From contig CALFZE010000124.1 in the NCBI GenBank assembly GCA_937952285.1, positions 36,649 through 100,648 of the forward strand: DNA of 64,000 nt, in the 5' to 3' direction. Within the stretch, counting starts at the first letter, position 1. The number at the start of each line of letters is the position of its first letter. Of the stretch, positions 8,553 to 59,996 are shown piece after piece. The translations under genes were made by a program, and so were the position numbers. Source of the DNA: an uncultured Bacteriovoracaceae bacterium. GTDB taxonomy: Bacteria > Bdellovibrionota > UBA2428. The notes beneath the pieces were generated by a model. It did no database searches, was not told the origin of the DNA, and saw nothing but the letters and a program-made list of their open reading frames with translations.

Positions 8553-10022
8553 CTAGGTCGTTCCAACGCCGGAACTTTCGAGCGCCGATCGACAGACCTC
8601 CACGTCGGAAAACACGCGTCTCTCCGTTCCGACGATCTGGTAGTCCTCGTGTCCCTTGCCGGCGACCACGCAGATGTCGCCCGGAGCGAGACCCGCGATC
8701 ACGGACTCGATGGCTTCACGGCGATCCACGATCGCTCGGTAACGGCCGCCCGCGAGGCCGCGGGTCATGTCGTCCAAGATCGAGGTCGGGGATTCGGATC
8801 GAGGGTTGTCGGAAGTGAACACGGCTTCGTCCGCGGTGAGCGCCGCGCGCGCCATGAGCGGACGCTTGGAGCGGTCACGGTCTCCCCCGCAGCCCACGAC
8901 GCAAACGAGACGCCCGCCCGAGGGGCGAAGCTCCTTCAGCGCATCGATGACTTTGAGCACGGCATCCGGCGTGTGGGCATAGTCCACGAAAACGTGACGA
9001 TTGCCCCGCGGATCGATCACCCTCTCAAGCCGTCCGCGCGCGCCGCCGAAGGAAGCGACGGCCCGACGGCAGACTTCGTCCGACACGCCGAGACCTCGGG
9101 CGACTTCCAGGCAACCCACGATATTTTCGGCGTTGTAGCGACCGAGCATCGGGCTCGCGAAAGAGGCCCCGTCGGCGCGCCGAATCTTCAGCCCGCCGAC
9201 GTCGTGGGACTCGACCTCGAAACCCTCGCCGAGGCCGACGACGTTCGCGCGTGCCCCCGGCGCGACCCTCCGAGCGATACGATGGCCCGCCTCGTTGGCG
9301 TTCAGCACGGCCACCGGCCGTTTCGCCGCGGCAACGGAATCCGCCAAGAGGCGCCCGAAGAGCTCCGCCTTGGCCGCTTCGTAAGCCTCCATGGTGCCGT
9401 GATAATCCAGATGATCCTGGGTCAGGTTCGTGAAGAGGGCCGCGTCGAAGTCGCAGCCGTCCGCCCGACGGAGCGAAAGTGCGTGGCTGCTAACCTCCAT
9501 CACGACGGCATCGACGCCATCGTCGACGAGCGAGCGCAGAAGTGTCTGGAGGGTGGGAGCGTCGGGCGTCGTGAACCCCGTTTCGAGCGCGCGCTCGGGG
9601 CTTTCCGGTTGCCTACCCGCCCAGAGCGAAACTCCGAGCGTGCCGATCTCGGCGCTTCGCCACCCGTTCTCGACGAAGATACGGCGCAGAAGACTCGCGC
9701 AGGTCGTCTTGCCGTTCGTCCCGGTAACGCCGACGAGCTTCAGGCGTCGACTCGGAAAGCGGCAGGACTCGGCCGAAGCGAGCGCCAACTCGCGCCGAAG
9801 GTCCGCGCGGCGTTCGTAACTCGTCAGCGCGGCATCGCGATCGTAAAGCGTGGCGTCGACGAACACGCGCGCGGGCGCGCGGGCGAGGAGCTGCGCGCGC
9901 GTTTCGGCGGGCTGCTCGGCGAAGAGGCAGACGACCTCGTCCGACCCCGACGGTGCCTGACGGGAGTCCCAGATCCACACGCCTTGGGAACTCTCGATCC
10001 GGGGAAACTTCTCGACTCTCAT
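8553..10022 (-). CDS. murE: UDP-N-acetylmuramoyl-L-alanyl-D-glutamate--2,6-diaminopimelate ligase
   Basis: GVTGTNGKTT P-loop, DYAHTPDA motif. 489 aa. Confidence 0.9.
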   Translation of the reverse strand: MRVEKFPRIESSQGVWIWDSRQAPSGSDEVVCLFAEQPAETRAQLLARAPARVFVDATLYDRDAALTSYERRADLRRELALASAESCRFPSRRLKLVGVTGTNGKTTCASLLRRIFVENGWRSAEIGTLGVSLWAGRQPESPERALETGFTTPDAPTLQTLLRSLVDDGVDAVVMEVSSHALSLRRADGCDFDAALFTNLTQDHLDYHGTMEAYEAAKAELFGRLLADSVAAAKRPVAVLNANEAGHRIARRVAPGARANVVGLGEGFEVESHDVGGLKIRRADGASFASPMLGRYNAENIVGCLEVARGLGVSDEVCRRAVASFGGARGRLERVIDPRGNRHVFVDYAHTPDAVLKVIDALKELRPSGGRLVCVVGCGGDRDRSKRPLMARAALTADEAVFTSDNPRSESPTSILDDMTRGLAGGRYRAIVDRREAIESVIAGLAPGDICVVAGKGHEDYQIVGTERRVFSDVEVCRSALESSGVGTT

Positions 10023-11956
10023 CGGAGCTTCAAAACAACTTTCTCGCCCGCCTTCAAGCGCGCGCCGGCGGCCGGGAACTGGTCCGCGACGAAGCGCCCG
10101 TTACCCAGCAATTCGAGAACCGCGCCGCGCTCCTGCAGGATGCGCAGCGCCCCGGATAAGGGGAGCCCCTTGAAATCCGGGAGCTCGTTCGAGGGGAGCG
10201 AGACCTTCGCGAAGCTCTCGCTCGAGGCGGACGAAGCGGCCGGGCGACGAGCCAACGGCGCCGTCGACGGCGGCGGAAGCGGCGTAGGAGCCCGCGACGG
10301 ATTCGAGAAGCGCAAAGCCGCCGAGGCGATCCGCGAGAAAACGGGGGCGGCCACCCCGCCTCCGTAGTATCCGCCCGTGCGCGGTTCGTCGATCAAGACG
10401 TAGATCACGAAGCGAGGATCCTGCGCCGGCAGGAATCCCGCGAACGACGACCAGTAGGCGCCCGACTTGTAACCCCGGGCTTCGTAGTCGACTTTCTGGG
10501 AGGTTCCGGTTTTTCCCGCGACCCGAAAGCTATCGACCTTAGCCGCGGTTCCCGTGCCCTCTTCCTCGACGACCTTCTCCAAGATTCCCCGCATGGTTTT
10601 GGCCGTCGCCGCCGACAACACGCGTTCGCGCGACGAGGTGCCGTGCCCGCGCGCGAAACGCGGTTTGACCCGGTAGCCGCCGTTCGCGATGACGGCGTAG
10701 GCCGTCGCGATCTGCAGCGGCGTCGAAGCGAAACCCTGGCCGAAGGACATCGTGGCTTGTTCGAGCTTCTGGGCCGCGGTCGGGCGGCGAAAGAGTCCCT
10801 TGGACTCCGCGCCCAAGTCGACGCCCGTCGCGCCGATGAGACCGACCGAGCGGAAGGCCTGCTCGACTTTTTCCCACCCCATCTTCTGCTGAAGCACGAC
10901 GGTGCCGACGTTGCTCGAGTAGCGGATGAGGTCGACGATGCTGACGTTTGCGAAACGGTGCTTGGCGTCGGCTTCGCCGATCGTCTTGCGGCCGATCTTG
11001 ATGAAGCCGTTGCCGGCCGAGATTTTGGATTGCGGGTTCACGAGCTTGTCTTCGAGCGCCTGGGCGACGACGAAGGGCTTCACGACGCTGCCGGGCTCGA
11101 TCGGGTCCGTCAAAAGACGAAAGCGCCGCGAATCGGCGGACGACAGGCCCGCCGCGTTCGGATCGAAAGTCGGCACGCTCGCGGCCGCCAGGATCTCTCC
11201 ATTGTGGGGATCGAGCACGAGCGCCGTGCCGCTCACCGCGTCGTGCTTACGCACGGCTTCCATGAGAGCGGATTCGACCGAAAACTGAAGGTGCGCATCG
11301 ATCGTGAGCTCAAGGTCTTGGCCGTGGTAGGAATCGAGACGGATCTGGTCGGCCTCCGAGAAGAGCGGCCGTCCGAGCGCGTCCCGGCGCAGCGTGATCT
11401 GGCCGCGCTCGGCCCGCAGACTTTCGTCGAAGGCCCGTTCGACGCCCTCCACGCCCTTGCCGTCGATCGAGACGAAACCGAGGGCGTGCGAGGCGAGCGT
11501 GCCTTGCGGGTACTGGCGACGGTACTCGCGGAGGGTACCCACCCCCGGCAGCGTGCGCAGATCGAGCCGACGAAGGCGCTCGAGCGCGCGCTCGTCGAGC
11601 TGGCGCGCGAGCCACGAGAACTTGCGTCCCGAGTGATCGCGGATGCGGTCCCGCAGGCCGCGGGCCTCGGTGCCCAGCACCGGCGCGAGGGCCTTCGCCA
11701 CCGCGTCGGGATCCTTGACGAGACGGGGATTCACGAAAACCGAAACCGTGTTCGTCGAGACGGCGAGCTCGCGCCCGTTACGATCGCGGATCGTGCCACG
11801 ACGGCCGACGAGATCGATTTTCTGTAGCAGCTGGCGGCGGGCGAGCGCCTCGACCTTGGGGCTCGGCAGGATCTGCAATTGGAAGGACCGCGCGAGCACC
11901 GCGAGGAACCCGACGAGAAGCCCGAGCGCCAGCAGGCGCAAGCGAAGCCGCATCAT
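10019..11956 (-). CDS. ftsI: Class B penicillin-binding protein (FtsI-like transpeptidase) with C-terminal PASTA-like domain
   Basis: SVVKPF (SxxK), SSN and KTGT motifs. C-terminal GALRILQERGAVLELLGNGRFVADQFPAAG is PASTA-like. 645 aa. Confidence 0.85.
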   Translation of the reverse strand: MMRLRLRLLALGLLVGFLAVLARSFQLQILPSPKVEALARRQLLQKIDLVGRRGTIRDRNGRELAVSTNTVSVFVNPRLVKDPDAVAKALAPVLGTEARGLRDRIRDHSGRKFSWLARQLDERALERLRRLDLRTLPGVGTLREYRRQYPQGTLASHALGFVSIDGKGVEGVERAFDESLRAERGQITLRRDALGRPLFSEADQIRLDSYHGQDLELTIDAHLQFSVESALMEAVRKHDAVSGTALVLDPHNGEILAAASVPTFDPNAAGLSSADSRRFRLLTDPIEPGSVVKPFVVAQALEDKLVNPQSKISAGNGFIKIGRKTIGEADAKHRFANVSIVDLIRYSSNVGTVVLQQKMGWEKVEQAFRSVGLIGATGVDLGAESKGLFRRPTAAQKLEQATMSFGQGFASTPLQIATAYAVIANGGYRVKPRFARGHGTSSRERVLSAATAKTMRGILEKVVEEEGTGTAAKVDSFRVAGKTGTSQKVDYEARGYKSGAYWSSFAGFLPAQDPRFVIYVLIDEPRTGGYYGGGVAAPVFSRIASAALRFSNPSRAPTPLPPPSTAPLARRPAASSASSESFAKVSLPSNELPDFKGLPLSGALRILQERGAVLELLGNGRFVADQFPAAGARLKAGEKVVLKLR

Positions 11957-12282
11957 CGAAGCGAGGCGCCCTTCGCGCGCGGCGATTCGGGGAAGAGCAC
12001 GCGTTTTCCGTCCGGACGCTCGAAGCCGCTACCTTCGCTCACGAGGGATTCGGCCAAGCGCTCGAGGCTGGCGGGCCCCATGAGCCGTTCCCGCTGGACG
12101 CGCAGGCTCGCGATCTTCGACTCGAACTCGCGGATCTTGGCGCGTTGCTCGGCGACCGCGAAGCCCTTCGTCACGACGAGGGTACGCAACTGGATGTGGA
12201 GCAGGAAGAAAAGCACGCAAAGACCGACGAAGGCGAGAACCTTCAAGACGGCCTTCTGATGATGGTTCAGCGACTCCCCCAA
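11953..12282 (-). CDS. ftsL: Cell division protein FtsL-like
   Basis: 109 aa, one TM helix then a coiled-coil. Positioned between rsmH and ftsI. Confidence 0.6.
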   Translation of the reverse strand: MGESLNHHQKAVLKVLAFVGLCVLFFLLHIQLRTLVVTKGFAVAEQRAKIREFESKIASLRVQRERLMGPASLERLAESLVSEGSGFERPDGKRVLFPESPRAKGASLR

Positions 12283-12317
12283 GCGCTCCCCCTCCGGACG
12301 GCATGTACGCGGTCGTT

Positions 12318-13202
12318 CTAGCGTCGGCGTTCCAAGATCCGAAGCTTCGCGCTTCGGCTTCGCGGGTTCGCCGCGATCTCTTCGTCGGACGGAATCACCG
12401 GACGCTTAGACAGAATATCGAAGGCCCCGTCCTCGGCCAAGTCACGAAAGCGGTTTTTGACCAGACGGTCTTCGATGGAATGAAAAGAGATGATCGCGAG
12501 GCGACCGCCGACCGCGAGCGCGTCCGGGGCCCAACGTAGCAAGGCCTTCAATTCGCCGACTTCGTCGTTGATCGCCATGCGAAAGGCCTGGAAGGCGCGC
12601 GTCGCCGGATGGATACGACTGTCGCTACCGTAGTTCAGGCTCTTCGAGATACGATCCGCCAAGGTCTTGGCGCTCACGAAGGCGTCGCCCCCCCAAGACT
12701 TCAGGTCCCGCGCGAGTTTGCGAGCTTTGGGCTCCTCGCCGAAGCCGTCGAGGATCTCGACGAGGTCCGCCTCGCTCGTCGCCGCGAGCCACTCCGAGAA
12801 CGAAGCGCCGCGCGTGGGGTCCATGCGAAAGTCCGGCGCTTGCTCCGAACGAAGGCTAAGTCCGCGCGCGGGGTCGTCGATCTGAAACGAGGAGATCCCG
12901 AGGTCCGCCAGCACGAACGCGAGCTTCCCGTCGAAGTCGGGGCGCTTCGAAAAAACGCCCGCCCGAAAATCCACGCGAGCCTCGACGCCCTTGTCGTGCG
13001 CGGTTTTCATCACGCGCGCTTGCGCTTCGGGGTCGCGATCGATCGCGAGGCCGCGCCAACGTGGAGAAGCGAGCAAACACTCGGTGAGATGCCCACCGGC
13101 GCCCGCCGTTCCGTCGATCAAAATGGCGTCTTCTTCACGCAAAGGCGAAGTGCGCGCAGCGTCAATTATTTCGGCAAGAAGAACGGACACATGTAAATTC
13201 AT
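12318..13202 (-). CDS. rsmH: 16S rRNA (cytosine1402-N4)-methyltransferase
   Basis: DGTAGAGGH SAM-binding motif, typical RsmH/MraW length (294 aa). Confidence 0.9.
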   Translation of the reverse strand: MNLHVSVLLAEIIDAARTSPLREEDAILIDGTAGAGGHLTECLLASPRWRGLAIDRDPEAQARVMKTAHDKGVEARVDFRAGVFSKRPDFDGKLAFVLADLGISSFQIDDPARGLSLRSEQAPDFRMDPTRGASFSEWLAATSEADLVEILDGFGEEPKARKLARDLKSWGGDAFVSAKTLADRISKSLNYGSDSRIHPATRAFQAFRMAINDEVGELKALLRWAPDALAVGGRLAIISFHSIEDRLVKNRFRDLAEDGAFDILSKRPVIPSDEEIAANPRSRSAKLRILERRR

Positions 13203-13285
13203 TGTAAGTTCGAAGACATTACGCGATGCAGCTAAATGGTCAACCTAAATCCCTAAGTTTCTAGAGATTTTTTTGCATCACCCCC

Positions 13286-13313
13286 TCAAGCCCGCCGTCA
13301 AAATTCCGATGAA
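13286..13313 (+). promoter_or_regulatory. Sigma-28 (FliA)-like promoter candidate TCAAG-N15-CCGATGAA for flagellin 1, about 300 nt upstream of the ATG
   Basis: Same architecture as the fla2 candidate. Consensus is TAAAG-N15-GCCGATAA. Confidence 0.35.
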
Positions 13314-13592
13314 CTGAGCATGATCGGCGTCACAGATTTGACGATCGATCTCAACCCGCGGGTTGCTCGCATCGGTCCAGTACCGCAGCGCAGTCCCAGG
13401 GTCGGAAGGAAGGAGGTTCGGAAGACGGAACGGAGGTTTTGACTACGGACGGACTCTGCACGGTGGGATGGACCCCCGAGGCAGCTGTCAAAGAAACCGA
13501 TTTTTGTTCTGACAACGAAGGCCAAGGAGAGTGGGCCAAACGATCGAGAAGGCCGGCAGCCGACTCGAACGTCACAAAACACGGAGGTGGAA

Positions 13593-13616
13593 ATGAAACA
13601 GTCTAAAGGAGACTAA
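13593..13616 (+). other. Conserved 7-codon uORF (MKQSKGD) ending 2 nt before the flagellin 1 ATG
   Basis: Own SD ACGGAGGTG 5 nt upstream. The stop TAA is followed by AA then the flagellin ATG. A counterpart MNTFDGD lies at the same position upstream of flagellin 2. Confidence 0.3.
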
Positions 13617-13618
13617 AA

Positions 13619-14452
13619 ATGGGACTTCGCATTAATACGAACCAGATCGCCGTGAACGCTCAACGTAACCTCCGCGGCAACCAAGCCACGCTTCAAGGTT
13701 CTTCCGAGAAGCTCGCTTCGGGTTACCGTATCAACAAGTCGGCCGACGACGCCGCCGGTCTCGCGATCAGCGATAACCTCGGCGGTATGGTCCGCTCGTA
13801 CCAACAAGCGGGTCGTAACGCTCAAGACGGTATCTCCTTCGTTCAGGTCGCCGAAGGCGGCATGGGTGAAGTCGGTAACATGCTCAACCGTCTCCGCGAA
13901 CTCTCGGTCCAAGCCGCTTCCGATACGATCGGCTCGCGTGAACGCGAGTTCCTCGACCGCGAAGCGCAACAGCTCAAACTCGAAGTTGAACGCGTCGCCC
14001 AGTCGACCGAGTTCAACGGCACCAAACTCTTGAACGGTTCGGGCACCAAGCTCGACTTCCAAATCGGCGTGAACAACGACGACTTCCTCGACCGGATCGG
14101 TTACGACCCGTCGCAGACGAACGTTTCCGCGGACGCCCTCGGTATCAGCGGAATCAACCTCGCCGACAAAGCGACGGCGCAAGGTGGTCTTAACAACATC
14201 GATAACGCGATCCTCGTTCTGAACAGCAACCGCGCAACGCTCGGTGCCCTTCAGAACCGCCTGACCTCGACGTACGCGAGCACGGAAATCGCGGTCGAGA
14301 ACTTCAGCGCCGCCAAGAGCCGTATCCGCGACACGGATTTCGCGTCGGTCACGGCTGATATGACCCGCGATATGGTCAAGACCCAAGCCTCGACGGCCGT
14401 CTTGAGCCAAGCGAACTCGTCCACCCAAATGGCCCTCCGCCTCTTGGGCTAA
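13619..14452 (+). CDS. fliC: Flagellin (short, D0/D1-only, 277 aa)
   Basis: MGLRINTNQIAVNAQRNL N-terminus and LSQANSSTQMALRLLG C-terminus. SD AAGGAG. Confidence 0.95.
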   Translation: MGLRINTNQIAVNAQRNLRGNQATLQGSSEKLASGYRINKSADDAAGLAISDNLGGMVRSYQQAGRNAQDGISFVQVAEGGMGEVGNMLNRLRELSVQAASDTIGSREREFLDREAQQLKLEVERVAQSTEFNGTKLLNGSGTKLDFQIGVNNDDFLDRIGYDPSQTNVSADALGISGINLADKATAQGGLNNIDNAILVLNSNRATLGALQNRLTSTYASTEIAVENFSAAKSRIRDTDFASVTADMTRDMVKTQASTAVLSQANSSTQMALRLLG

Positions 14453-14481
14453 GACCCTCCTCGATCGTCAAAGTTCTGACG

Positions 14482-14523
14482 CCGGAAATTCCCTCCAAGC
14501 GGGGGAATTTCCGGCTTTTTTTT
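14482..14523 (+). terminator. Rho-independent terminator after flagellin 1
   Basis: CCGGAAATTCCC-loop-GGGGAATTTCCGG stem followed by CTTTTTTTTT. Confidence 0.65.
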
Positions 14524-14667
14524 GCCCTTCATACAAAGAAAATAATCGGCTTCGCTTCCCTGCGACGCACGAGATCAATTCCAATGTCTCTGAAGACATT
14601 CTGCACAGAGTCAATTTAACAATTCACGCCTTCTTGATGCGACCTTAAGAATCTTTCCAAAGTCGCC

Positions 14668-14694
14668 TCAAGACCTCCTCCCCATCACCGATAG
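14668..14694 (+). promoter_or_regulatory. Sigma-28-like promoter candidate TCAAG-N15-CCGATAG for flagellin 2, about 315 nt upstream of the ATG
   Basis: Direct motif reading, coordinates +/-1. Confidence 0.35.
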
Positions 14695-14985
14695 CGCCCA
14701 TGTGCGAGGAGAGTCAGCTCTTCGCCGACACCTACTCCCAGGTGGATCTGCCGTGCGCTCCATTCGCGCGCGACTGTCTCCCAGGGTCGGAAGGAAAGGA
14801 GGTTCGGAAGACGGAACGGAGGTTTGACTAAGGAAGGACTCTGCCAACGGGGTCGGGAAATGATCTCCCCTGGCAGCTGTCAAAGACTGATTTTTTTCTG
14901 ACTACTGAGAGCCACGGAATCAACAGGCTCCTTGTTCGAGAAGGCCGGCAGCCGACTCGTTCATGAATCAAACACGGAGGTGAAA

Positions 14986-15009
14986 ATGAACACGTTTGAT
15001 GGAGACTAA
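14986..15009 (+). other. Conserved 7-codon uORF (MNTFDGD) ending 2 nt before the flagellin 2 ATG
   Basis: Same arrangement as upstream of flagellin 1 (SD GGAGGTG, stop TAA, AA, ATG). Coordinates +/-1. Confidence 0.3.
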
Positions 15010-15011
15010 AA

Positions 15012-15845
15012 ATGGGACTTCGTATCAATACTAACCAGATCGCGGTGAACGCTCAGCGCAACTTGCGAAACAACCAAGCCGTTTTGCAAGGCTCTTCCGA
15101 GAAACTCGCTTCGGGTTCCCGGATCAACAAGTCGGCCGACGACGCCGCTGGTCTCGCGATCAGCGACAACCTCGGCGGTATGGTCCGCTCGTACCAACAA
15201 GCGGGTCGTAACGCTCAAGATGGTATCTCTTTCGTGCAAGTCGCCGAAGGCGGCATGGGCGAAATCGGCAACATGTTGAACCGTCTGCGCGAGCTCTCGG
15301 TGCAAGCGTCTTCGGACACGATCGGCAACCGCGAGCGAGAGTTCCTCGATCGCGAAGCGCAACAGCTCAAGCTCGAAATGGAACGCGTCGCCCAGTCGAC
15401 CGAGTTTAACGGCACCAAGCTCCTCTCGGGGCAAGGCACCAAGCTCGACTTCCAAATCGGCGTGAACAACGACGACTTCCTTGACCGGATCTCCTACGAT
15501 CCGTCTCAAACGAACGTCTCGGTTGACGCGCTCGGCATGAGCGGAATCAACTTGTCCGACAAGGCCGCGGCCCAATCGGGTCTCGCCAACATCGACAACG
15601 CGATTCTCGTGTTGAACAGCAACCGCGCGACGCTCGGTGCTCTTCAAAACCGCCTGACCTCGACCTACGCGAGCACGGAAATCGCGGTCGAGAACTTCAG
15701 CGCCGCCAAGAGCCGTATCCGCGACACGGATTTCGCGTCGGTCACGGCTGATATGACCCGCGATATGGTCAAGACCCAAGCCTCGACAGCCGTCTTGAGC
15801 CAAGCCAACCAGTCCACCCAAATGGCTCTCCGCCTCTTGGGCTAA
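15012..15845 (+). CDS. fliC: Flagellin paralog 2 (277 aa), tandem duplicate of 13619..14452
   Basis: Near-identical protein. The last ~200 nt are almost identical at the DNA level while the 5' part carries many synonymous differences. Confidence 0.95.
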   Translation: MGLRINTNQIAVNAQRNLRNNQAVLQGSSEKLASGSRINKSADDAAGLAISDNLGGMVRSYQQAGRNAQDGISFVQVAEGGMGEIGNMLNRLRELSVQASSDTIGNREREFLDREAQQLKLEMERVAQSTEFNGTKLLSGQGTKLDFQIGVNNDDFLDRISYDPSQTNVSVDALGMSGINLSDKAAAQSGLANIDNAILVLNSNRATLGALQNRLTSTYASTEIAVENFSAAKSRIRDTDFASVTADMTRDMVKTQASTAVLSQANQSTQMALRLLG

Positions 15846-15918: not shown

Positions 15919-15958
15919 GGCCTCCGGAGGCGAAAGCTTCCGGGGGCCTTTTTGTTTT
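15919..15958 (+). terminator. Rho-independent terminator after flagellin 2
   Basis: GGCCTCCGGAGG-loop-CTTCCGGGGGCC stem followed by TTTTTGTTTT. Confidence 0.6.
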
Positions 15959-16226: not shown

Positions 16227-16342
16227 GTGACTCAGAGCGTTAAACGGTGTCCAGCGGAGGCAACGGAACCTTCGAGGGAGACTTGCAACGCCAAATGACG
16301 CAACGCAGCAATAGTGCGGCGTTGCTTAGGGAGGGTTACTCA

Positions 16343-17173
16343 ATGGGTCTTCGTATTCAAACCAACATTGCGAGCGTGAACGCTCAACGCAACCTGCGCC
16401 AAAATAGCGGCGGGGCCGAACGTTCGATGGAACGCCTCGGCAGCGGCTTCCGAATCAACAAATCCATGGACGACGTCGCCGGCCTCGCGATTAGCGAAAC
16501 GATGAAGGGCCAGCTACGGGGTCTCGGACAAGCCGAGCGAAACGCGCAGGACGGTATCTCCTTCGTGCAGGTGGCCGAATCGGGCCTCAACGAAACCTCC
16601 AACTTGCTCAACCGTGTTCGGGAACTCGCAACCCAAGCCGCGTCCGACACCATCGGCGATACGGAACGTGGGTTCGTGAACATTGAAGTCCAACAGCTCG
16701 TGACCGAAATGGATCGGATCGCGACGACGACCGAATACTCCGGTTCTCGACTCCTGGATGGCTCGGGCCAAACGCTCGACTTCCACGTCGGCTTCCGAGG
16801 CGACCCCTCGAAAAACGTGATCAGCTACGACGCCGGCGCCGCGAACGCACAAACTTCCGCGCTCGGCGTGGATGGAGTGAGCGTTGCCTCTAAAGATGAC
16901 GCACGGGGTACGCTCGACGTCATCGACCAGGCCATCTCGAAAGTCGCCGCGATGCGAGCCGGCTTCGGTGCGATTCAAAGCCGGATGAGCTCGACGATCA
17001 GCAACATCTCGGTCTACCGAGAAGCTCTCAGTGCCGCGAACTCCCGGATTCGAGATGCCGACATGGCCGAAGAATCCGCGAACCTCGCGAAGGCCAACAT
17101 CTTGCAACAAGCCGGTACCGCGGTCTTGGCGCAAGCCAACAGCGCGAACGCTCTCGCCCTGAAGCTGCTCTAG
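16343..17173 (+). CDS. fliC: Flagellin paralog 3 (divergent, about 276 aa)
   Basis: Start taken at the internal MGLRIQTNIASVNAQRNL with SD GGGAGGG, not at the track ORF start 16247. C-terminus ANSANALALKLL. Confidence 0.9.
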   Translation: MGLRIQTNIASVNAQRNLRQNSGGAERSMERLGSGFRINKSMDDVAGLAISETMKGQLRGLGQAERNAQDGISFVQVAESGLNETSNLLNRVRELATQAASDTIGDTERGFVNIEVQQLVTEMDRIATTTEYSGSRLLDGSGQTLDFHVGFRGDPSKNVISYDAGAANAQTSALGVDGVSVASKDDARGTLDVIDQAISKVAAMRAGFGAIQSRMSSTISNISVYREALSAANSRIRDADMAEESANLAKANILQQAGTAVLAQANSANALALKLL

Positions 17174-17358: not shown

Positions 17359-17949
17359 TCAGAGCGCGAACTGACAGATCTTAAGCGTGCCTCGATCCGA
17401 AAAGGCGACGACCCCGGCGCTGGAATCCATCTCCCGAATTGCGTACAGACTCTCACGCAAACGTCCGGCGGCCTTGGCCGACCCGGCGAGCGCCGGAGGC
17501 GCTTCGCCGCGCGAGTAATACGCATTTTCAAGATCGCTGATCTGACCAACCAACGTATCGACGAGACCCATAAGGCTTTCTTGCCAGTTCTTCTCGGTCC
17601 AACCGTTCGTCAGCGTCATCCCGGCTCCGCAGACCTCTTTGATATCCTGCAAAGTCCGCTCCATGGCGCCTCGCTTGGCGGCGACCAACGCGATGATTTG
17701 GCTTTCGATCGACTCGCCGCCGATGACCTTGTCCGCTTTCTGGATGAGGGCATCCAGGCCGCGGTCGCCGCCCCCCGCGCCGACGTCGCCGGGATTCTTG
17801 TCCGCGCTCAACCTCGCCCGCTTGACCCGTGTCTTCTCCGCCGAAGCCGGAAGACGGGACGGGCCCGCGGAAGCGCTTGCGCAGGCGCCGAGGCCCAGGA
17901 ACGCCCCGAGCACGAGACCCATGGCCGTGATTTTGGATTTTTTCTTCAT
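17359..17949 (-). CDS. Lipoprotein of unknown function (196 aa)
   Basis: Real start at the internal MKKKSKITAMGLVLGAFLGLGAC (lipobox LGAC), with SD AAGGAG. The upstream portion of the 459-aa track ORF is an Arg-rich antisense artefact. The ATGA overlap with the upstream gene indicates coupling. Confidence 0.6.
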   Translation of the reverse strand: MKKKSKITAMGLVLGAFLGLGACASASAGPSRLPASAEKTRVKRARLSADKNPGDVGAGGGDRGLDALIQKADKVIGGESIESQIIALVAAKRGAMERTLQDIKEVCGAGMTLTNGWTEKNWQESLMGLVDTLVGQISDLENAYYSRGEAPPALAGSAKAAGRLRESLYAIREMDSSAGVVAFSDRGTLKICQFAL

Positions 17950-18773
17950 GTTTTCTCCTTTTCTTTCACCGACGCATCGTCGGCGATTCTGAACAACTGA
18001 ATGGAAAGCGCATAAACCTGCTTTGCTTTCGGGTCGTCGAGCGACTCCGCGGTTTCCCGACGAAAGCGACGTATCTTCTCGCGCGCCTTCGTCATTTCCT
18101 TCGGATCGAAGAGGAAGACCGTGCTCGTATGGTCGCGCTCCTCGAAAGCGTCTTGGGCAAGCGAACGTTGCGCCGCCGAAAGAATCTGCGCCTGGTAGTT
18201 CCGTAAGGCCGACGACGGCACGCTGCCGGGAGCGAGCAGTACGTCCGAGGCACGCCACCGGCCGGCCTCGTCCTTCCAGATGAGCTCGAGCCGCTTGAGC
18301 CGCTCCCAGCTTTCCTCCACGACGGAGCGGGCCAACCCGAAGCTCCGCGCCAACTTGCCGAAGTCGAGTCGAAAACCCTCCGAACGCACGAGCTCGCGCA
18401 AGGCGAGGTGCTGCCAGTCCGAGATGATCCGGAACGCGTCGAGCGAAAGACGATGCTGGGAAAGGTGCCGGCGCTGCTCGATGCGCGCGCGGGCCATGGC
18501 TTTCTGCGTCGCGCTTCGCGCGTGTTCGCTGTCGACGAGATCGCAGAAATATTCGCCCTCGCTGCCGACCCAACCCAAGCGACGGGAGATCGCCTCGGCC
18601 TTCGTTCGCGATAAGCCTTCGCGACCGCTCAAGATCGAAGACAGGCGTCCCGGGTGCAGCGCAAGATCGCGCGAGAAAGCCCGCAGCGAATAGCGAGGAT
18701 TCGCCGCCATTCGACCACGCAGCTCTTCGCGCAACCAATCGCGGTAGGACGCGACGGCATCGACTTTGCCCAT
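17946..18773 (-). CDS. HTH-domain protein of unknown function (TIGR02147-like family)
   Basis: 275 aa. The N-terminal region resembles a winged-helix/HTH. Normal amino-acid composition, and it overlaps the downstream lipoprotein start by ATGA. The family name is a tentative recollection. Confidence 0.5.
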   Translation of the reverse strand: MGKVDAVASYRDWLREELRGRMAANPRYSLRAFSRDLALHPGRLSSILSGREGLSRTKAEAISRRLGWVGSEGEYFCDLVDSEHARSATQKAMARARIEQRRHLSQHRLSLDAFRIISDWQHLALRELVRSEGFRLDFGKLARSFGLARSVVEESWERLKRLELIWKDEAGRWRASDVLLAPGSVPSSALRNYQAQILSAAQRSLAQDAFEERDHTSTVFLFDPKEMTKAREKIRRFRRETAESLDDPKAKQVYALSIQLFRIADDASVKEKEKT

Positions 18774-19584: not shown

Positions 19585-22551
19585 GTGCGGGGCGACTATA
19601 TTCGCCCGATGCCGTCGACATTCCTCCCGCGTTACCTCTTCCGAATTTTCCTCGGCGCGGGCGGGGGCTTCTTCGTGCCGACGGCCGCCGCCATCACCTC
19701 GGGCAGCGAATCGGTCGACGCCATTTCGGGAGGAAGCTACCGCACCTTTCGACTCCCTTCGCATCACTTGCATTTCGACGTCGAGCTCGAGCGCCTCGCC
19801 CGGTCGCTCGCGCCCCGCTTCGAGAACTACCTCGACGGGCTCCAGTCGAGGCTGAAGTTCCGTTTGAAGCGGCCGATGCCCGTCTTCTTGGTGAAACGCG
19901 GATTCGGCAACGCCTTCGTCACGTTTCCTTCGGCGGCCTCGCCTTCTTTCTCGGTCCTTTCGCCTCGGCTCACGGCGGCCGAGCTCGGCTCGCCCACTTT
20001 CCTCTACGCCGGCGACGACGAAGGCGTTTTCGACACTTTCCGACACGAAGCCATGCATTACGTGGAAGAAGACCAGCGACGGAGCTTCTGGTCCGCGCTC
20101 ATGGGCGACGCGCCTTACTCCCTCCCTTCGGGTACGGCTTGGGCCGCCGAAGCCTGGGCGGTCGTCCACGAGAAGCCCTCGAACCCCTACTCCGGACGCA
20201 TGAAAGAATCCTACTTCGGAGCGCTCATGCGCGCGAACGTGTCCGGACGCGCGACGCCCGCCCCGACCGAGTGGGACCTCAGCGCGAACAATCCGGATTG
20301 GCGACTGCTCGGCAGCCACTACGTCGTGGGCTCGAACTTCTTCGCCTTCCTGGCGCGCACGCACGGCCTCGCGAAAGTGGACGATTTTATGATCCACCGA
20401 AACGGCTTCTCGGCGAGCTCCGCCTACGAAAAAAGCTTCGGCAAAGACTTCGAGGCGCTTTACGGAGAGTTCCGACGCGAAACCGCCGACGAAGTCCGTC
20501 GTCAAAGCGCCTCGGGGGCGGCCGTCGTTTTTGACGACGACATCGGGCGCATCAACGCGTTAGGTACCACCCTGAACGGCGAAAAAATCTTCGTCGGAAG
20601 CTCGCTCGACCGAACGCCGCGCCTCTACCGGGTTTCGGCCGACGGCAAACGCGACTTGGGCTCCGCCGCGCTCTTCGAATGGATCGCTCCGTTGGGCGGT
20701 CGCCTCGCCTTCGCCCCTTGGCAATGGTCCGAGGCCCGCGTCCCGGGCGCGCTGGATTTCTTTTCGGCGGAAAGCAACGCCGAGGGCAACGAAAGCCGGC
20801 CCGGCCTCTATCGCTACCATCTCGAAGCGGGAACGCGTCGTAGGCTCCGCGGCCTGCCCCTCGCGCGTGCCGCCGTCTCGCGTGGCGACCGGGCGGGATA
20901 CTACGCTCTCGTTCAGTCGGACCCGAACGAGAATCGCTTCCGCCTGGAAGAAGGCCCCCTCGACGAAGACGGCCCGACCCGCGTGCTTTCCGAGTGGTCG
21001 GAGTTCTCCAGCGTTTCGCAGCTGCGCCAGCACCCGGAGTCCGGCGCGCTCTACTTCGCCGCCATCCGACCGGAAGGCAGTTGGGGAATCTACCGGATCG
21101 ACGCGAATCCGAACGCGACGCCGCAGCCGCTCGTCGACACGCGAGGCCAGGATCTCTTTCCGCTCGTCGATCGGGCGGGCAACGTCTTCTTTCTTTCCGA
21201 CCTGAACGGACGGAGTTTTCAGGTCTACCGCTTGGACGGCGAACGGGTTTGCCGTCTGAGCGACGAGCCGTTCTTCGTGTCGAGCTTCGGATGGGGCGCG
21301 AACGAGCGCGAGCTCTTGGCCGTGAGCCGCCGAGGCCCGAGCGAAGTCCTCGTCTCGCTTTCGACCGAAGCGCGGAACTGCGTTTCCATGGCCGAGGTCG
21401 CGGCCGCGTCGACGAGTGTTCCCTCCTTCCGGAGCACCACGGTCGCGGCGACCGAAGAATCCGCTTGGCAAGGGCTTTGGCCGGCGACCCGCGCCCTGCT
21501 CCCCCGCTACACCCGCAGCGGCGACTTCGGAGTCCAGGCGCTCCTGTCCGGCGAGTCTCCCTACAAAGACTGGTCTTGGACTCTGCTCGGCGACTGGGAA
21601 GCCACCGACGAGAACACCCATATTCTCGGGGGAACGATCGGATGGCACGCTTTCTTTCCCGTCGTTTCGCGCCTCCGGGTCGAAGCGAGCCCGCTCGCGC
21701 TCGGCTACGCGTTCGTGCCCGACGCGCGCTTCTTGAACGCGAGCCTCGAGTTGCAGCGCGAACTCGGCCATCATCTTTTCCGGGGCCGCGCGGTCGCGAC
21801 GACCCAAACGGACGATGCCGCTTCGGATCCCGACCCCTACGGGTCGGCCACGGAGATCGGCGTGGCCCACTCCTTCTCGAACACCCAGCAGTCCGCGCTG
21901 GCCGCGGCTCCCCAAAGGGGTTGGTCGCTTTCGACGGCGTTCGAGGTCAATCCGAGTTACTTCGGCCAGGCGTCCACGCGAGCCGTCCTTTCGGCCCGAC
22001 AAACTTTTCATCTGCCGATCGAATCGTTCGCGCGCAATCACTCCCTGAGCCTGAGCCTCTCCGAGACGAAAGCGTTCAACGGTCTCCTGCGGGTTCAAGG
22101 TATCGGCGGCGGCAACGGCTTCGACTACGAGATCGAGTCCGCCGTCGCGCAGGGCTACGGTTTCGGCCGTCTCGTGGGCGCCGGAGAAACCCTTTTCGCC
22201 TATCCCGATTTCCGCATGACGGCCAATCTCATCTTGAGGGGGACGCTCGCCTACGTCATCCCGTTGAACTTCCTGCGAAGCGGCCTCTCGCAAGTCGCGG
22301 GAAGGCGCTGGCTCAACCCCGAGACCTCCGCGATGAACGTCTCGTTTTTCTACGACACGACCGTCGCCCGGGACGGTGACATCGACGTTACGGAGCAGCG
22401 GGGCAGCGTCGGCATCCGAAGCGACTGGTCTCTCTGGTTGAACGAGAACCAAAGCACGGGGATCTCGGCCAGCTACATCGGCGCTTTCGAGCTTCAGGAC
22501 GAACGCGCCCTGCGCCACACTTTCGCGACGAGCGCACGGATCTACTACTGA
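19585..22551 (+). CDS. Large secreted multi-domain protein: HExxH metallopeptidase-like N-region, TolB-like beta-propeller, C-terminal beta-barrel-like domain
   Basis: HEAMHYVEE motif. PD40-like repeats (RLYRVSADGKRDL, ALYFAAIRPEGSWGIYRID, FFLSDLNGRSFQVYRLDG). C-terminal RIYY. 988 aa, 37 nt downstream of the OMP gene. Confidence 0.55.
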   Translation: MRGDYIRPMPSTFLPRYLFRIFLGAGGGFFVPTAAAITSGSESVDAISGGSYRTFRLPSHHLHFDVELERLARSLAPRFENYLDGLQSRLKFRLKRPMPVFLVKRGFGNAFVTFPSAASPSFSVLSPRLTAAELGSPTFLYAGDDEGVFDTFRHEAMHYVEEDQRRSFWSALMGDAPYSLPSGTAWAAEAWAVVHEKPSNPYSGRMKESYFGALMRANVSGRATPAPTEWDLSANNPDWRLLGSHYVVGSNFFAFLARTHGLAKVDDFMIHRNGFSASSAYEKSFGKDFEALYGEFRRETADEVRRQSASGAAVVFDDDIGRINALGTTLNGEKIFVGSSLDRTPRLYRVSADGKRDLGSAALFEWIAPLGGRLAFAPWQWSEARVPGALDFFSAESNAEGNESRPGLYRYHLEAGTRRRLRGLPLARAAVSRGDRAGYYALVQSDPNENRFRLEEGPLDEDGPTRVLSEWSEFSSVSQLRQHPESGALYFAAIRPEGSWGIYRIDANPNATPQPLVDTRGQDLFPLVDRAGNVFFLSDLNGRSFQVYRLDGERVCRLSDEPFFVSSFGWGANERELLAVSRRGPSEVLVSLSTEARNCVSMAEVAAASTSVPSFRSTTVAATEESAWQGLWPATRALLPRYTRSGDFGVQALLSGESPYKDWSWTLLGDWEATDENTHILGGTIGWHAFFPVVSRLRVEASPLALGYAFVPDARFLNASLELQRELGHHLFRGRAVATTQTDDAASDPDPYGSATEIGVAHSFSNTQQSALAAAPQRGWSLSTAFEVNPSYFGQASTRAVLSARQTFHLPIESFARNHSLSLSLSETKAFNGLLRVQGIGGGNGFDYEIESAVAQGYGFGRLVGAGETLFAYPDFRMTANLILRGTLAYVIPLNFLRSGLSQVAGRRWLNPETSAMNVSFFYDTTVARDGDIDVTEQRGSVGIRSDWSLWLNENQSTGISASYIGAFELQDERALRHTFATSARIYY

Positions 22552-22553
22552 CC

Positions 22554-22976
22554 CTAGACCGGGCGCATGACTTTGGCGCCCATCTTCCGTTCGCGGTCGA
22601 TGAGTTCCAGAAGCCGGCCCACGGTCACCCGAAAGCGATTGGGGGTGTAGGGCCGCTGCAGCACGGCGAGGGCGCCCAACGAAAGCGCGCGATTTTCGAC
22701 CTCGTTCGCCATCATTCCCTGGTATCGGTGCGAAAGCACGACGCGCGCCGCGGGCTCGAGCTCCTTCAACTTCGTCAGACAGTAAAGTCCGTCGCGTTTT
22801 GGCAGCTGCAGTTCGACGAAGACGAAGTCGGGCCTCAACTTCTGCCAGGCGCTCATCCATCCCGAACCCGCCCGGGCCCACTCCACGACCTGGATGCCAT
22901 TCGCTTCCAGATTCGCGCGGAGTTCGGAGGCGTTTTCCTCGTAGTAATCCACGATCATAGCCGTGCAGGTCGCCAT
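22554..22976 (-). CDS. Atypical single-domain response-regulator receiver (pseudo-receiver: D13Y, D57E, K109R by CheY numbering)
   Basis: Aligns to CheY: MIVDYYEEN (beta1), FVFVELQLPKRDG (beta3, Asp57 replaced by Glu), VLSH (beta4), VLQRPY (beta5). Start taken at MATCTAM. Confidence 0.6.
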   Translation of the reverse strand: MATCTAMIVDYYEENASELRANLEANGIQVVEWARAGSGWMSAWQKLRPDFVFVELQLPKRDGLYCLTKLKELEPAARVVLSHRYQGMMANEVENRALSLGALAVLQRPYTPNRFRVTVGRLLELIDRERKMGAKVMRPV

Positions 22977-22998
22977 GGACTCAGTGTAACATGCTCCC

Positions 22999-24693
22999 GT
23001 GCCTTCACCCCGCTTCTTCGCGCGCGCGTCGGTCTTCAAGCTGCTCCCGGCCCTCTTGGTCGGGCTGATCCCGTTCGACCTCCTTGACCAGGCTCTGCTC
23101 TCCCGCCTCTACCGCATTCGAGGCGAACGACCGGGCCCGGCGGCCATCAAAGTCGTGCTCGTTCGCGACCCCGAGGAGATGTCGGATTTCCTGCGCGTCG
23201 TGCGGCCGCTCACGGATCTGCCCTGCATCAACTTGAGCCGGTGGAATCCGGGCGAACGTTCCTGTCTCTTTTTGCCGGTCGAGGAGATCTCGCGCCCTCG
23301 GGAGATCTTCACGTTCGCGCCCAGCCTCGCGCGCTTTCTGGGGCGGGAAGTCCCGCCTCCCTTCCACGCCGACGGCGGGATTCAACCGCTCTACTACGGG
23401 AACATTGCCGTCTTCCGGCCCCTGACCGTCCCGGAAGCCATCGCTTCGGTCAAATCGCTCTTCGGTCCCGGCGACATCCTGGTCTTCGCGCCGACGAGTC
23501 CCGTCCCCACGATCCCCGCCGAAACGCCGGCCGGAAGCCTGAACCAAGTCGAGATCGCCTTGAACATGGTGGGCAACGCTTTCGAAGAGCGCTCCCTCGC
23601 TTCGACGTCGCGCACCCTCCAGGTCATGCACTCGGCCGCGGCCTCGGCGCTCGTCGCCTGGATCCTGTACTCCTATCCGATCGTCCTGACGGCGGTGCTC
23701 ACCCTCTTGCTCGGCCTGGTCCAGCTCATCCTCGCGCTCGTCGTCTTCGATACGCTCGACGTCCAACTGCTCGCCGTCGCGCCGCTCGTGGCGATGCTCA
23801 CGGCCTACCTCCTCGGCCTGAGCGATCGGCTCAACAGCCGTGAACGCGAAGCCTGGTCCCTGGAACAGCGATCCGAGAGCCTGCGCGAGCTCGACGAGAT
23901 GAAATCCAATTTTCTCTCCCTCATTTCCCACGACCTCAAGACGCCCATCGCCAAGATGCAGGCCATGCTCGAACGCATGGCCCACGGCGAACTCGGGTCG
24001 CTCACCCCGACGCAGAACGAAACGCTCTCCCGCATCCTCTCGGCGAACGGGCACCTCCAACGAACGATCTCGACGCTGCTGCTGCTCAACCGCATCGAGA
24101 CGGGCCAGTTTCAGATCCGGCGGGAACCCACCGACCTTCTCGAGCTGATCGACGAAACCACGAAGGCGCACCAAGGTCCCGCGCAGGATCGCAACATCCG
24201 CATCGAGAAGGAGCTCGAGCCGCTCTTCCTGGCCGAGGTCGATCGCGGCCTCATCCGCGAAGTCATCAACAACCTCCTGGACAACGCGCTGAAGTACTCG
24301 CCCGCCGCCTCCGTCATTTCGGTCCGCTGCGGAGAGCTCGACAACTCGCCCGACCTTTCCCCGCCGCAACCGGCCATCTGGATCGAGATCCAAGACCGCG
24401 GCACGGGTATCCCGCCGCAGGACCGCGAACGCGTCCGGCAGAAGTTCGTGCGGGGCTCGAACGAAAACACGGCCGCGGACCAATCCGTCAAAGGCACCGG
24501 CCTCGGACTCTTCCTGAGCGGCTTCTTCGTCGAGAAACACGCGGGCCACATGCGCATCGTCTCGCGGACGCGCGGAGAGCCCTACGACCCGGGCTCGCCG
24601 GCCGCCCAGTACTTCGCCGAGGACGAGTCCGGTACCGTGGTGCGGATCAGCCTTCCCGTCGACGAAAGCTTCCTGACGCCCGAAGCCACGTAA
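22999..24693 (+). CDS. Sensor histidine kinase with N-terminal extracytoplasmic sensor domain and multi-TM region
   Basis: H-box SLISHDLKTPIAKM. HATPase_c N, G1 and G2 boxes (NNLLDNALKYS, DRGTGIP, GTGLGL). 564 aa. Confidence 0.8.
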   Translation: MPSPRFFARASVFKLLPALLVGLIPFDLLDQALLSRLYRIRGERPGPAAIKVVLVRDPEEMSDFLRVVRPLTDLPCINLSRWNPGERSCLFLPVEEISRPREIFTFAPSLARFLGREVPPPFHADGGIQPLYYGNIAVFRPLTVPEAIASVKSLFGPGDILVFAPTSPVPTIPAETPAGSLNQVEIALNMVGNAFEERSLASTSRTLQVMHSAAASALVAWILYSYPIVLTAVLTLLLGLVQLILALVVFDTLDVQLLAVAPLVAMLTAYLLGLSDRLNSREREAWSLEQRSESLRELDEMKSNFLSLISHDLKTPIAKMQAMLERMAHGELGSLTPTQNETLSRILSANGHLQRTISTLLLLNRIETGQFQIRREPTDLLELIDETTKAHQGPAQDRNIRIEKELEPLFLAEVDRGLIREVINNLLDNALKYSPAASVISVRCGELDNSPDLSPPQPAIWIEIQDRGTGIPPQDRERVRQKFVRGSNENTAADQSVKGTGLGLFLSGFFVEKHAGHMRIVSRTRGEPYDPGSPAAQYFAEDESGTVVRISLPVDESFLTPEAT

Positions 24694-24779
24694 AATCCTT
24701 CGGATCCCTGGACCCGATCCACGCCTGAAATTCGAGGAATCCTGACGGCGGACTCGCGAGGTCCTGCTAAGATGAACGC

Positions 24780-30523: not shown

Positions 30524-30589
30524 ATCCGCATTGTAGGTCGGCTTTCGGATGCCCGAAAGGGCGAAGGCTTTGCTAAAGTCTTTCTCTCG

Positions 30590-57394: not shown

Positions 57395-57419
57395 GTCCTT
57401 CGTGGGTTGGGTAACTCGC

Positions 57420-59885: not shown

Positions 59886-59996
59886 GGAGCCTCCTCGCAG
59901 TTGCTCATTCCATGAACCCGATCTTTTTCGGGCTCATAAATTGGCTTCGGCGGAGCGAGACGAGTTCTTGAGCCGGAACCGGTGAAGATCTTTTGA

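Follow-up and report, generated by a model that had tools for sequence, protein, structure and literature searches.

What is the role of the unusually conserved sequence that precedes two tandem flagellin genes in an uncultured Bacteriovoracaceae bacterium (Bdellovibrionota)? The genes lie in a stretch of 64,000 nucleotides (nt), hereafter called the window, which spans positions 36,649 to 100,648 of contig CALFZE010000124.1 (assembly GCA_937952285.1). The initial annotation had placed upstream of each of them a leader of about 300 nt, with a sigma-28-like promoter, blocks shared between the two copies, and a 7-codon upstream open reading frame (uORF). We found all of these at the positions it gave. 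It had also attributed a GGA-rich block of the leader to CsrA, a regulator for which GGA is the known docking signal. We describe below how the leader is conserved across related lineages and how it folds. On comparative evidence, it is a structured RNA with five helices that show compensatory changes. Our best reading is that it represents a new, clade-restricted, structurally supported elaboration of the CsrA type of flagellin leader already known, with a nested uORF that is conserved.

Two flagellin genes with long leaders conserved in related lineages

Flagellin 1 (13619-14452, plus strand) and flagellin 2 (15012-15845, plus strand) encode proteins of 277 aa and are followed by intrinsic terminators at 14481-14515 and 15919-15948, respectively. 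These tandem paralogs have 94% protein, 88% nucleotide, and 74% four-fold-site identity. They would form separate transcription units, and each has a sigma-28 (FliA)-type promoter on the plus strand. The promoter of flagellin 1 (13285-13313), CTCAAG-N15-CCGATGAA, is an exact pattern match and puts the probable transcription start near 13320. The promoter of flagellin 2, CTCAAG-N15-CCGATAG (14667-14694), matches the same pattern. By sequence, they agree with FliA class III promoters, where -35 TAAA(G) and -10 (G)CCGATA(A/T) elements stand about 15 nt apart upstream of a late flagellar gene. The core CTCAAG-N15-CCGAT has only three exact matches in the window, two of which are the flagellin promoters (13285-13310 and 14667-14692), and six matches with at most one mismatch where 2.0 are expected. 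The third exact match (58813-58838, minus strand) lies within the span of a long plus-strand ORF (open reading frame; 57402-59915) and is probably a chance occurrence.

Leader 1 would thus be a 5' untranslated region (UTR) of about 299 nt (13320-13618, plus strand), variable at 13320-13400 and conserved and structured at 13401-13618. Leader 2 measures about 311 nt (14701-15011, plus strand). The two can be aligned from promoter to ATG, as near-identical blocks with diverged stretches between them. Neither an intrinsic terminator nor a second promoter was found inside leader 1 (13320-13618). We considered the conserved T-run as a terminator or attenuator and rejected this possibility, since no hairpin adjoins it and the run is the 3' strand of a long-range helix (P1, see below).

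The leader is kept upstream of orthologous flagellins (72-81% amino acid identity) in eight further uncultured Bdellovibrionota lineages (L047, L051, L096, L097, L053, L055, L104, and L106). The two window copies included, this gives ten long leaders, to which we added a short diverged one (L055a), for a set of 11. Synteny between rsmH and the flagellin gene holds in all eight lineages, with an intergenic region of 408-459 nt, except in L055, where it has 247 nt. All ten long leaders have a sigma-28-type promoter some 300 nt ahead of the flagellin. In the orthologs it mostly reads CTCAAG or CTAAAG-N15-CCGATAG, the -10 element being CCGAAGG in L055b and CCGATTG in L104. In addition to the promoter, the alignments revealed the conserved elements GAAAGGAGG...GGA(C/A)GAC, GACUA-N-GGA-N-GGAC, UGUCAAA, a GCCA-N-GGA hairpin, CCGGCAG, ACA(C/A)GGAGGU, and GGAGA(C/T).

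The distribution of these leaders is narrow. The closer flagellin relatives in a large protein database form a graded series of 70-81% identity, some of them labelled Bdellovibrionales. Among species-representative genomes, the nearest flagellins have at most 61% identity (at most 58% over the full length) and belong almost all to Bdellovibrionota, mostly to Bacteriovoracia; their leaders have no homology to those of the window. A scan of metagenome contigs yielded a single close locus, from the same species as L047. The search of Rfam gave no relevant match, either at gathering score or at E<=10, and this includes every Csr/Rsm family.

Could the resemblance between the two leaders be the residue of a recent tandem duplication, or could the region encode a protein? 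The two copies do precede tandem paralogs, and in the JGI metagenome contig of this sequence (3300006417) gene calling put a 98-aa ORF over leader 1 (L001 1150-1446, i.e., 13320-13616 of the window), which ends at the uORF stop. Yet we regard this explanation as extremely improbable. The blocks are 100% identical between the two leaders and are thus conserved beyond near-neutral sites, since the four-fold sites of the paralogs are only 74% identical. The initial annotation had itself envisaged that the blocks are merely part of a duplicated unit, and their conservation in single-copy orthologous loci contradicts this. The call of the 98-aa ORF is spurious because its frame contains a TGA at codon 41 under table 11, a practical point for those who rely on gene callers in such regions. 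Antisense ORFs in the leaders were also rejected as coding, as they are not the same in the two paralogs and Pfam has no match for them. Finally, the compensatory base-pair changes described in the next section indicate selection on RNA. Orthology, covariation, and the in-frame TGA together refute the reading as neutral duplication or coding sequence, and the conservation in orthologs along with the covarying fold supports the view that the leaders are functional.

A fold of five helices with compensatory changes

The architecture obtained by comparison consists of P1, a long-range helix within which lie a purine-rich strand and the P2 domain, and of the hairpins P3, P4, and P5 that follow. 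In leader 1 (all on the plus strand), P1 pairs 13401-13409 (GUCGGAAGG), at the start of the GGA block, with 13505-13513 (UGUUCUGAC), a conserved T-rich/CTGAC block. In other words, the GUCRGAA at the 5' end of the GGA block is one strand of a helix whose partner is the conserved UUCUGAC block. The purine-rich joining region (13410-13451) carries AAGGAGG, CGGAAGACGGAAC, and GACUACGGACG. P2 (13452-13489) has the form GAC-U-CUGC...GCAG-CU-GUC, with an apical hairpin GGG[AUGGA]CCC whose loop is at 13468-13472. P3 (13519-13538) is the hairpin AGGCC[AAGGAGAGUG]GGCCA, and P4 (13545-13567) the hairpin CGAG-AA-GGC[CGGCA]GCC-GA-CUCG, with its loop at 13554-13558. P5 (13580-13589), CAC[GGAG]GUG, contains the Shine-Dalgarno sequence (SD) of the uORF and is the candidate upstream CsrA site (BS1). 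The corresponding helices of leader 2, also on the plus strand, are P1 at 14786-14794 and 14894-14902, P2 at 14837-14881, P3 at 14909-14930, P4 at 14937-14959 (loop 14946-14950), and P5 at 14973-14982.

RNAalifold predicted P1 to P5 from the five closest sequences, with compensatory changes in 19 of the 54 pairs. When given the MAFFT alignment of all nine leaders, it recovered P2 alone. Since MAFFT misaligns the variable hairpins and shifts their registers (A6, A7, A10), we used a hand structural alignment and models built from two sequences. The N-padded hand alignment of nine leaders (A8; see also A9), in which every segment was verified against the true sequence, has 25 pairs, of which 21 show compensatory changes, and 99% of its cells are paired. 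None of 500 shuffles reached these values, and slid controls were at most 45% paired. Compensatory changes affect six of the nine pairs of P1, with changes in L096 and L097, while all cells of P2 pair and its stems covary. They are found in 5/5 pairs of P3 (4/5 in the model alignment) and in 7/7 pairs of P4 (in both alignments). The stem of P5 has variants such as CACC/GGUG and GCAUC/GGUGC.

As a hand alignment leans towards its own structure, we built covariance models trained on the two window paralogs only: R1, for P3 to P5 and the uORF, and R2, for P1 and P2. Such a search of relatives had been proposed in the initial annotation. R1 recovered all eight other leaders, with 17-57 bits, and the resulting Infernal alignment is 95% paired, with compensatory changes in 13 of 15 pairs. 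R2 recovered six of the eight, with 97% pairing and 8 compensatory pairs out of 16. Neither model had a hit across 84 distant flagellin loci (454 kb). The presence of G.U pairs in P1 makes the fold specific to the plus strand, and the covariation of the structure argues that the region is transcribed, i.e., that the upstream promoter is the real one. The minimum free energy of whole leaders is unremarkable (z-scores of -1.8, -0.5, and -2.4).

One of the conserved blocks pointed out in the initial annotation, GAGAAGGCCGGCAGCCGACTCG, corresponds to the P4 hairpin. Its CGGCA loop holds no GGA, and CsrA does not account for it. The exact CGGCA string is present in 8/10 leaders and, by inspection, the loop sequence of P4 is GGCA in L055b and CGGCAA in L104. 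It lies -59 to -71 nt from the ATG, and its two stems covary fully. We found no conserved complement of the loop in the leader or in the first 120 nt of the coding sequence, and no pseudoknot partner. Pairing with the 5' strand of P2 was considered and rejected, as P2 covaries and the loop does not.

This loop raises the possibility that the leader is a platform or sensor for another factor, be it an RNA-binding protein, a trans-acting small RNA (sRNA), or a small ligand, that reads P4 CGGCA and/or P1-P2, the GGA motifs being secondary. A loop that stays invariant over fully covarying stems with no intramolecular partner is what one would expect of such a platform, P1-P2 forms a closed and conserved domain, and the lack of an Rfam match is in line with this view. 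However, L097 and L053 lack the CGGCA hairpin and keep the rest of the leader, no conserved junction resembling a ligand pocket is evident, and the motif of a well-established regulator of flagellin mRNAs occurs here many times. We thus consider this explanation quite unlikely, and turn to the evidence for CsrA.

Conserved GGA sites and their fit to CsrA

We tallied the GGA sites by inspection of the ten leader sequences. A GGA is kept in 10/10 leaders at four places: the P5 loop, the flagellin SD, the motif A-N-GGA-N(1-2)-GGA(C/U) just 5' of P2, and GGA(C/A)GAC. The AAGGAGG of the joining region is found in 9/10, the GGA of the P2 apical loop in 8/10, and the P3 loop A(A/C/G)GGA in 8/10. The stems under the GGA loops change completely. 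The loops AUGGA, GUGGAAU, UGGAUG, and ACGGAAUC keep GGA and not GGAGG, which points to binding by CsrA rather than by the ribosome through the anti-SD. As regards P5, both ACACGGAGGUG and CAC[GGAG]GUG, the latter starting at 13580, fit the CsrA consensus CANGGANG, which is the hexaloop motif of this protein (PMC4894983).

The second candidate site (BS2) overlaps the SD of flagellin 1 (13606-13612, plus strand), AAGGAGA, within codons 5-7 of the uORF. The equivalent in leader 2 is GGAGAC, and GGAGA(C/T) is invariant in the ten long leaders. In all ten, the GGA of the P5 loop and that of the SD are 24-30 nt apart. The leaders of Bacillus subtilis hag and Campylobacter jejuni flaA have a two-site layout with one site at the SD (PMC7652899, PMC4894983), and a CsrA dimer can bridge sites 10-63 nt apart (PMC7652899). 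The spacing between P5 and the SD falls inside this range, so that a hairpin-loop GGA stands at bridging distance from the SD site, as in hag and flaA. Regarding the presence of the regulators in the phylum, the CsrA of Bdellovibrio bacteriovorus represses a B. subtilis hag reporter (PMC13443453) and the species encodes FliW (Bd0543; PMC12546842).

The GGA-rich block that had drawn attention to CsrA is indeed present, with eight GGA in leader 1, and its sites are less constant than supposed, since L047 and L051 keep about five of the eight (inspection of A2). The best CsrA-like sites are instead those of the P2, P3, and P5 loops and of the SD. A CsrA-type mechanism nevertheless remains the best fit to the leader.

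Other flagellin leaders of Bdellovibrionota (Bacteriovoracia and others; L002-L045) provide a broader context. They share gene family and phylum with the window leaders and resemble them in that an AAGGAGGA SD is preceded by one to three hairpin loops with GGA. They differ in being about 80-100 nt long, in not being alignable with the window leaders, and in the rarity of uORFs (3/39). At least one GGA hairpin loop 5' of the SD was found in 30 of these 39 distant leaders, with a mean of 1.15 such loops vs 0.18 in shuffles.

A seven-codon uORF that contains the flagellin SD

The uORF of leader 1 (13593-13616, plus strand) reads ATG AAA CAG TCT AAA GGA GAC TAA (MKQSKGD*) and that of leader 2 (14986-15009, plus strand) ATG AAC ACG TTT GAT GGA GAC TAA (MNTFDGD*). 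In both, GGAGGTG lies 3 nt upstream of the ATG, 2 nt separate the end of the TAA from the flagellin ATG (13619 and 15012), and codons 5-7 contain the flagellin SD. A uORF is present in 8 of the 11 leaders, always with seven codons and 24 nt from start to stop. The predicted peptides are MKQSKGD, MNTFDGD, (TTG)NYLTGD, (TTG)NLFTGD, MNRQFGD, MNLQTGD, MNIYTGD, and MKKFEGD. The start is ATG or TTG, all eight share NTG and the AA of codon 2, and TAA, TGA, and TAG are all used as stops. Each of the eight has its own SD, a GGAGG 4-7 nt from the start codon, and a stop that ends 2-4 nt before the flagellin ATG (8/8). Codons 3-5 have a mean identity of only 37%, and indels occur on both flanks of the uORF and never inside it. 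The frame is thus kept while the interior diverged, which argues for selection on the reading frame and not on the peptide.

L104, L106, and L055a, the short diverged leader, have no uORF. By inspection, L104 lacks both the uORF start and an in-frame stop at the SD. In L106, also by inspection, ATA replaces ATG, an in-frame TAA occurs upstream of the SD, and the linker is 4 nt longer. Both keep ACA(C/A)GGAGGU(G/A), and P5 is present in all ten long leaders. The initial annotation had presented GGAGGTG as the SD of the uORF. Its position fits this role, but the persistence of the element in the uORF-less L104 and L106 argues that its primary role is independent of the uORF, the latter being an add-on.

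Termination-reinitiation had been suggested on the basis of the uORF geometry. The separate SD and the stop abutting the flagellin start are conserved as described, whereas the sequestration of the main SD that characterizes the idlP-iraD type of coupling is absent. The only helix predicted at the SD has 3 bp and is broken in two of the five close sequences, and no conserved helix sequesters the flagellin SD in A8 or A13.

Comparable uORF geometries were observed in only 3 of the 39 distant leaders. Among the other leaders of the phylum, in L028 and L036, about 45 nt before the flagellin ATG, two AGGAGGA motifs flank a 3-codon uORF, ATGAAACCATGA, and L005 has a 7-codon TTG uORF that encloses the SD. 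To judge from these sequences, nested mini-uORFs may have arisen more than once in Bdellovibrionota.

Proposed mechanism: a multi-site CsrA-controlled leader with uORF coupling

We consider it somewhat probable that the leader is a multi-site CsrA-controlled flagellin leader with uORF coupling. The proposal starts from the conservation of the leader, its fold, the geometry of its motifs, and the conservation of the uORF, and supposes that CsrA and FliW bind, that the upstream promoter is used, and that the uORF is translated and coupled to the flagellin gene. FliA would transcribe a folded leader of about 300 nt for each flagellin gene. The fold would display GGA in loops and single strands, forming a multi-site docking platform for the CsrA dimer. 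One dimer could bridge the P5 loop and the flagellin SD 24-30 nt downstream and block the entry of ribosomes, as in hag and flaA. Since the GGAGG of P5 doubles as the uORF SD in most members, a single dimer would shut both entry routes. FliW, freed upon flagellin export, would then release CsrA. Ribosomes would now have two loading points, the uORF and the flagellin SD, and termination at the uORF would be followed by reinitiation 2-4 nt further on. As for the GGA sites located upstream, in P1 to P3, they might raise the occupancy or affinity of CsrA, or allow an abundant mRNA to titrate it, as flaA does.

Several results weigh against this proposal. First, the GGA counts are less telling than they seem. 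Leaders 1 and 2 have 14 GGA each per ~300 nt, and the nine leaders counted have 12-14 each, vs a window mean of 5.6 +/- 2.4 per 300 nt. These values are only weakly above those of dinucleotide-preserving shuffles (P = 0.07-0.16 for the window leaders and 0.04-0.4 for the nine leaders). As the shuffles nearly reproduce the count, it mostly reflects purine richness. The GGA signal is in which GGAs are conserved and in their placement in the fold, not in the raw count. Second, the sites are not universal: the P2 loop is without GGA in L104 and L106, and in L106 so is the P3 loop. CANGGANG is not enriched in the window (38 occurrences vs 31 expected), and any SD contains GGA, so that the one at the flagellin SD is weak evidence when taken alone. 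Third, csrA and fliW were not found in the 64-kb window or in ~620 kb of relatives' loci. Searches by tblastn with the CsrA of B. subtilis and Escherichia coli gave no match in the window and all loci, and no CsrA, FliW, or FliS turned up when 36 ORFs of the window were scanned against Pfam. Fourth, three leaders do without a uORF, which is thus dispensable, and coupling need not be obligatory since no conserved helix sequesters the flagellin SD. Fifth, A8, A13, and A14 were fitted to the structure, and there are only about ten distinct sequences. The CGGCA loop of P4, which CsrA leaves unexplained, adds to this list.

Some of these points would fit an expression module independent of CsrA, where a folded 5' UTR stabilizes the mRNA, SD-like tracts serve as standby or landing sites, and these together with a coupled uORF raise the translation of a very abundant protein. 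The best-conserved GGA-containing elements, AAGGAGG and GGAGGUG, are perfect anti-SD complements. The unsequestered flagellin SD, the largely compositional enrichment in GGA, and the failure to find csrA in the window or in the relatives' loci also speak for such a module. Still, we hold it to be unlikely. The conserved loops AUGGA, GUGGAAU, UGGAUG, and ACGGAAU keep GGA only and match the anti-SD poorly, the display of GGA by short hairpin loops on covarying stems is a signature of CsrA, and the geometry of BS1 and the SD is that of hag and flaA. In addition, CsrA and FliW are encoded in the phylum (PMC13443453, PMC12546842).

A more elaborate version of the CsrA proposal can be conceived, which we put forward as doubtful but possible. 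The leader would belong to an undescribed family of cis-regulatory RNAs, where a flagellin mRNA joins an RsmZ-like sponge domain with multiple CsrA sites (P1-P2-P3) to a translational operator of two sites. The upstream site of this operator would double as the SD of the 7-codon uORF, which has a fixed length and has the flagellin SD within it. The mRNA would both sense and set the level of free CsrA, the ribosomes on the uORF would act as a latch keeping CsrA off once translation has begun, and a second factor would read the CGGCA loop.

Comparison with known systems

The control of flagellin by CsrA and FliW is thought to be the ancestral job of CsrA. To our knowledge, its dissection has been limited to a handful of cultured species, whose leaders are all short and have two sites. 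The window leaders share with the targets of this partner switch, hag and flaA, a late flagellin mRNA of the sigma-28/SigD type, a hairpin-loop GGA ~20-30 nt upstream of the SD GGA, and an upstream site that fits CANGGANG. The flaA mRNA titrates CsrA, and we propose a comparable role for the window leaders. The known leaders are short (the flaA 5' UTR has ~45 nt), with two sites and no uORF. Those of the window have ~300 nt, five covarying helices, at least five conserved GGA positions (as candidate CsrA sites), an extra conserved loop without GGA, and, in most members, a uORF containing the flagellin SD.

In the idlP-iraD system of E. coli, CsrA represses through a coupled uORF (PMC5574718). 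The likeness lies in a short uORF, an SD that is a CsrA site (a candidate one here), and a stop abutting the start of the regulated gene. In iraD, however, the main SD is buried in structure, the CsrA sites are all far upstream, and repression operates wholly via coupling. In the window leaders the uORF encloses the flagellin SD, which is a candidate CsrA site in its own right and which no conserved helix sequesters, and the uORF is missing in 3 of the 11 leaders. The Csr/Rsm sponge RNAs (CsrB, RsmY/RsmZ) also present several GGA in hairpin loops and single-stranded linkers of one folded RNA. The window leaders differ from them in that they are not separate sRNAs, have no terminator before the flagellin ORF, have no Rfam match, and have fewer sites.

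These comparisons suggest that, in an uncultured clade of Bdellovibrionota, a much larger RNA has evolved around the same CsrA core. If this is true, the leader would be a new RNA family for Rfam, a natural combination of two-site repression by CsrA with uORF coupling on a flagellin mRNA, and a test bed for the idea that abundant target mRNAs double as CsrA sponges.

The third flagellin and the neighbouring genes

A third flagellin gene follows (16343-17173, plus strand). Pfam scans of flagellins 1 and 3 identified Flagellin_N and Flagellin_C in both. As noted in the initial annotation, the leader of flagellin 3 is short and lacks the blocks: it has ~107 nt (16236-16342) and shows no homology to leaders 1 and 2. 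It folds strongly (z = -3.07), with a hairpin CGGAGG[CAACGGAA]CCUUCG that has ACGGA in its loop and lies upstream of the SD UAGGGAGGG. Judging from these features, it may also be a target of the CsrA type.

The flagellins are divergent from the dcw cluster, where rsmH (12318-13202) is followed by ftsI and murE on the minus strand. Three ORFs of 459, 988, and 869 aa (17359-18738, minus strand; 19585-22551, plus strand; 28985-31594, minus strand) have no Pfam match. L047 and L097 keep the gene order of the window, with the flagellin locus divergent from the dcw cluster (murE-ftsI-small ORF-rsmH; window 8553-13202, minus strand). They also keep, 3' of the flagellin locus, the order of a response regulator, a histidine kinase, and a sigma-54 activator (window 22554-26252), which may be flagellar regulators.

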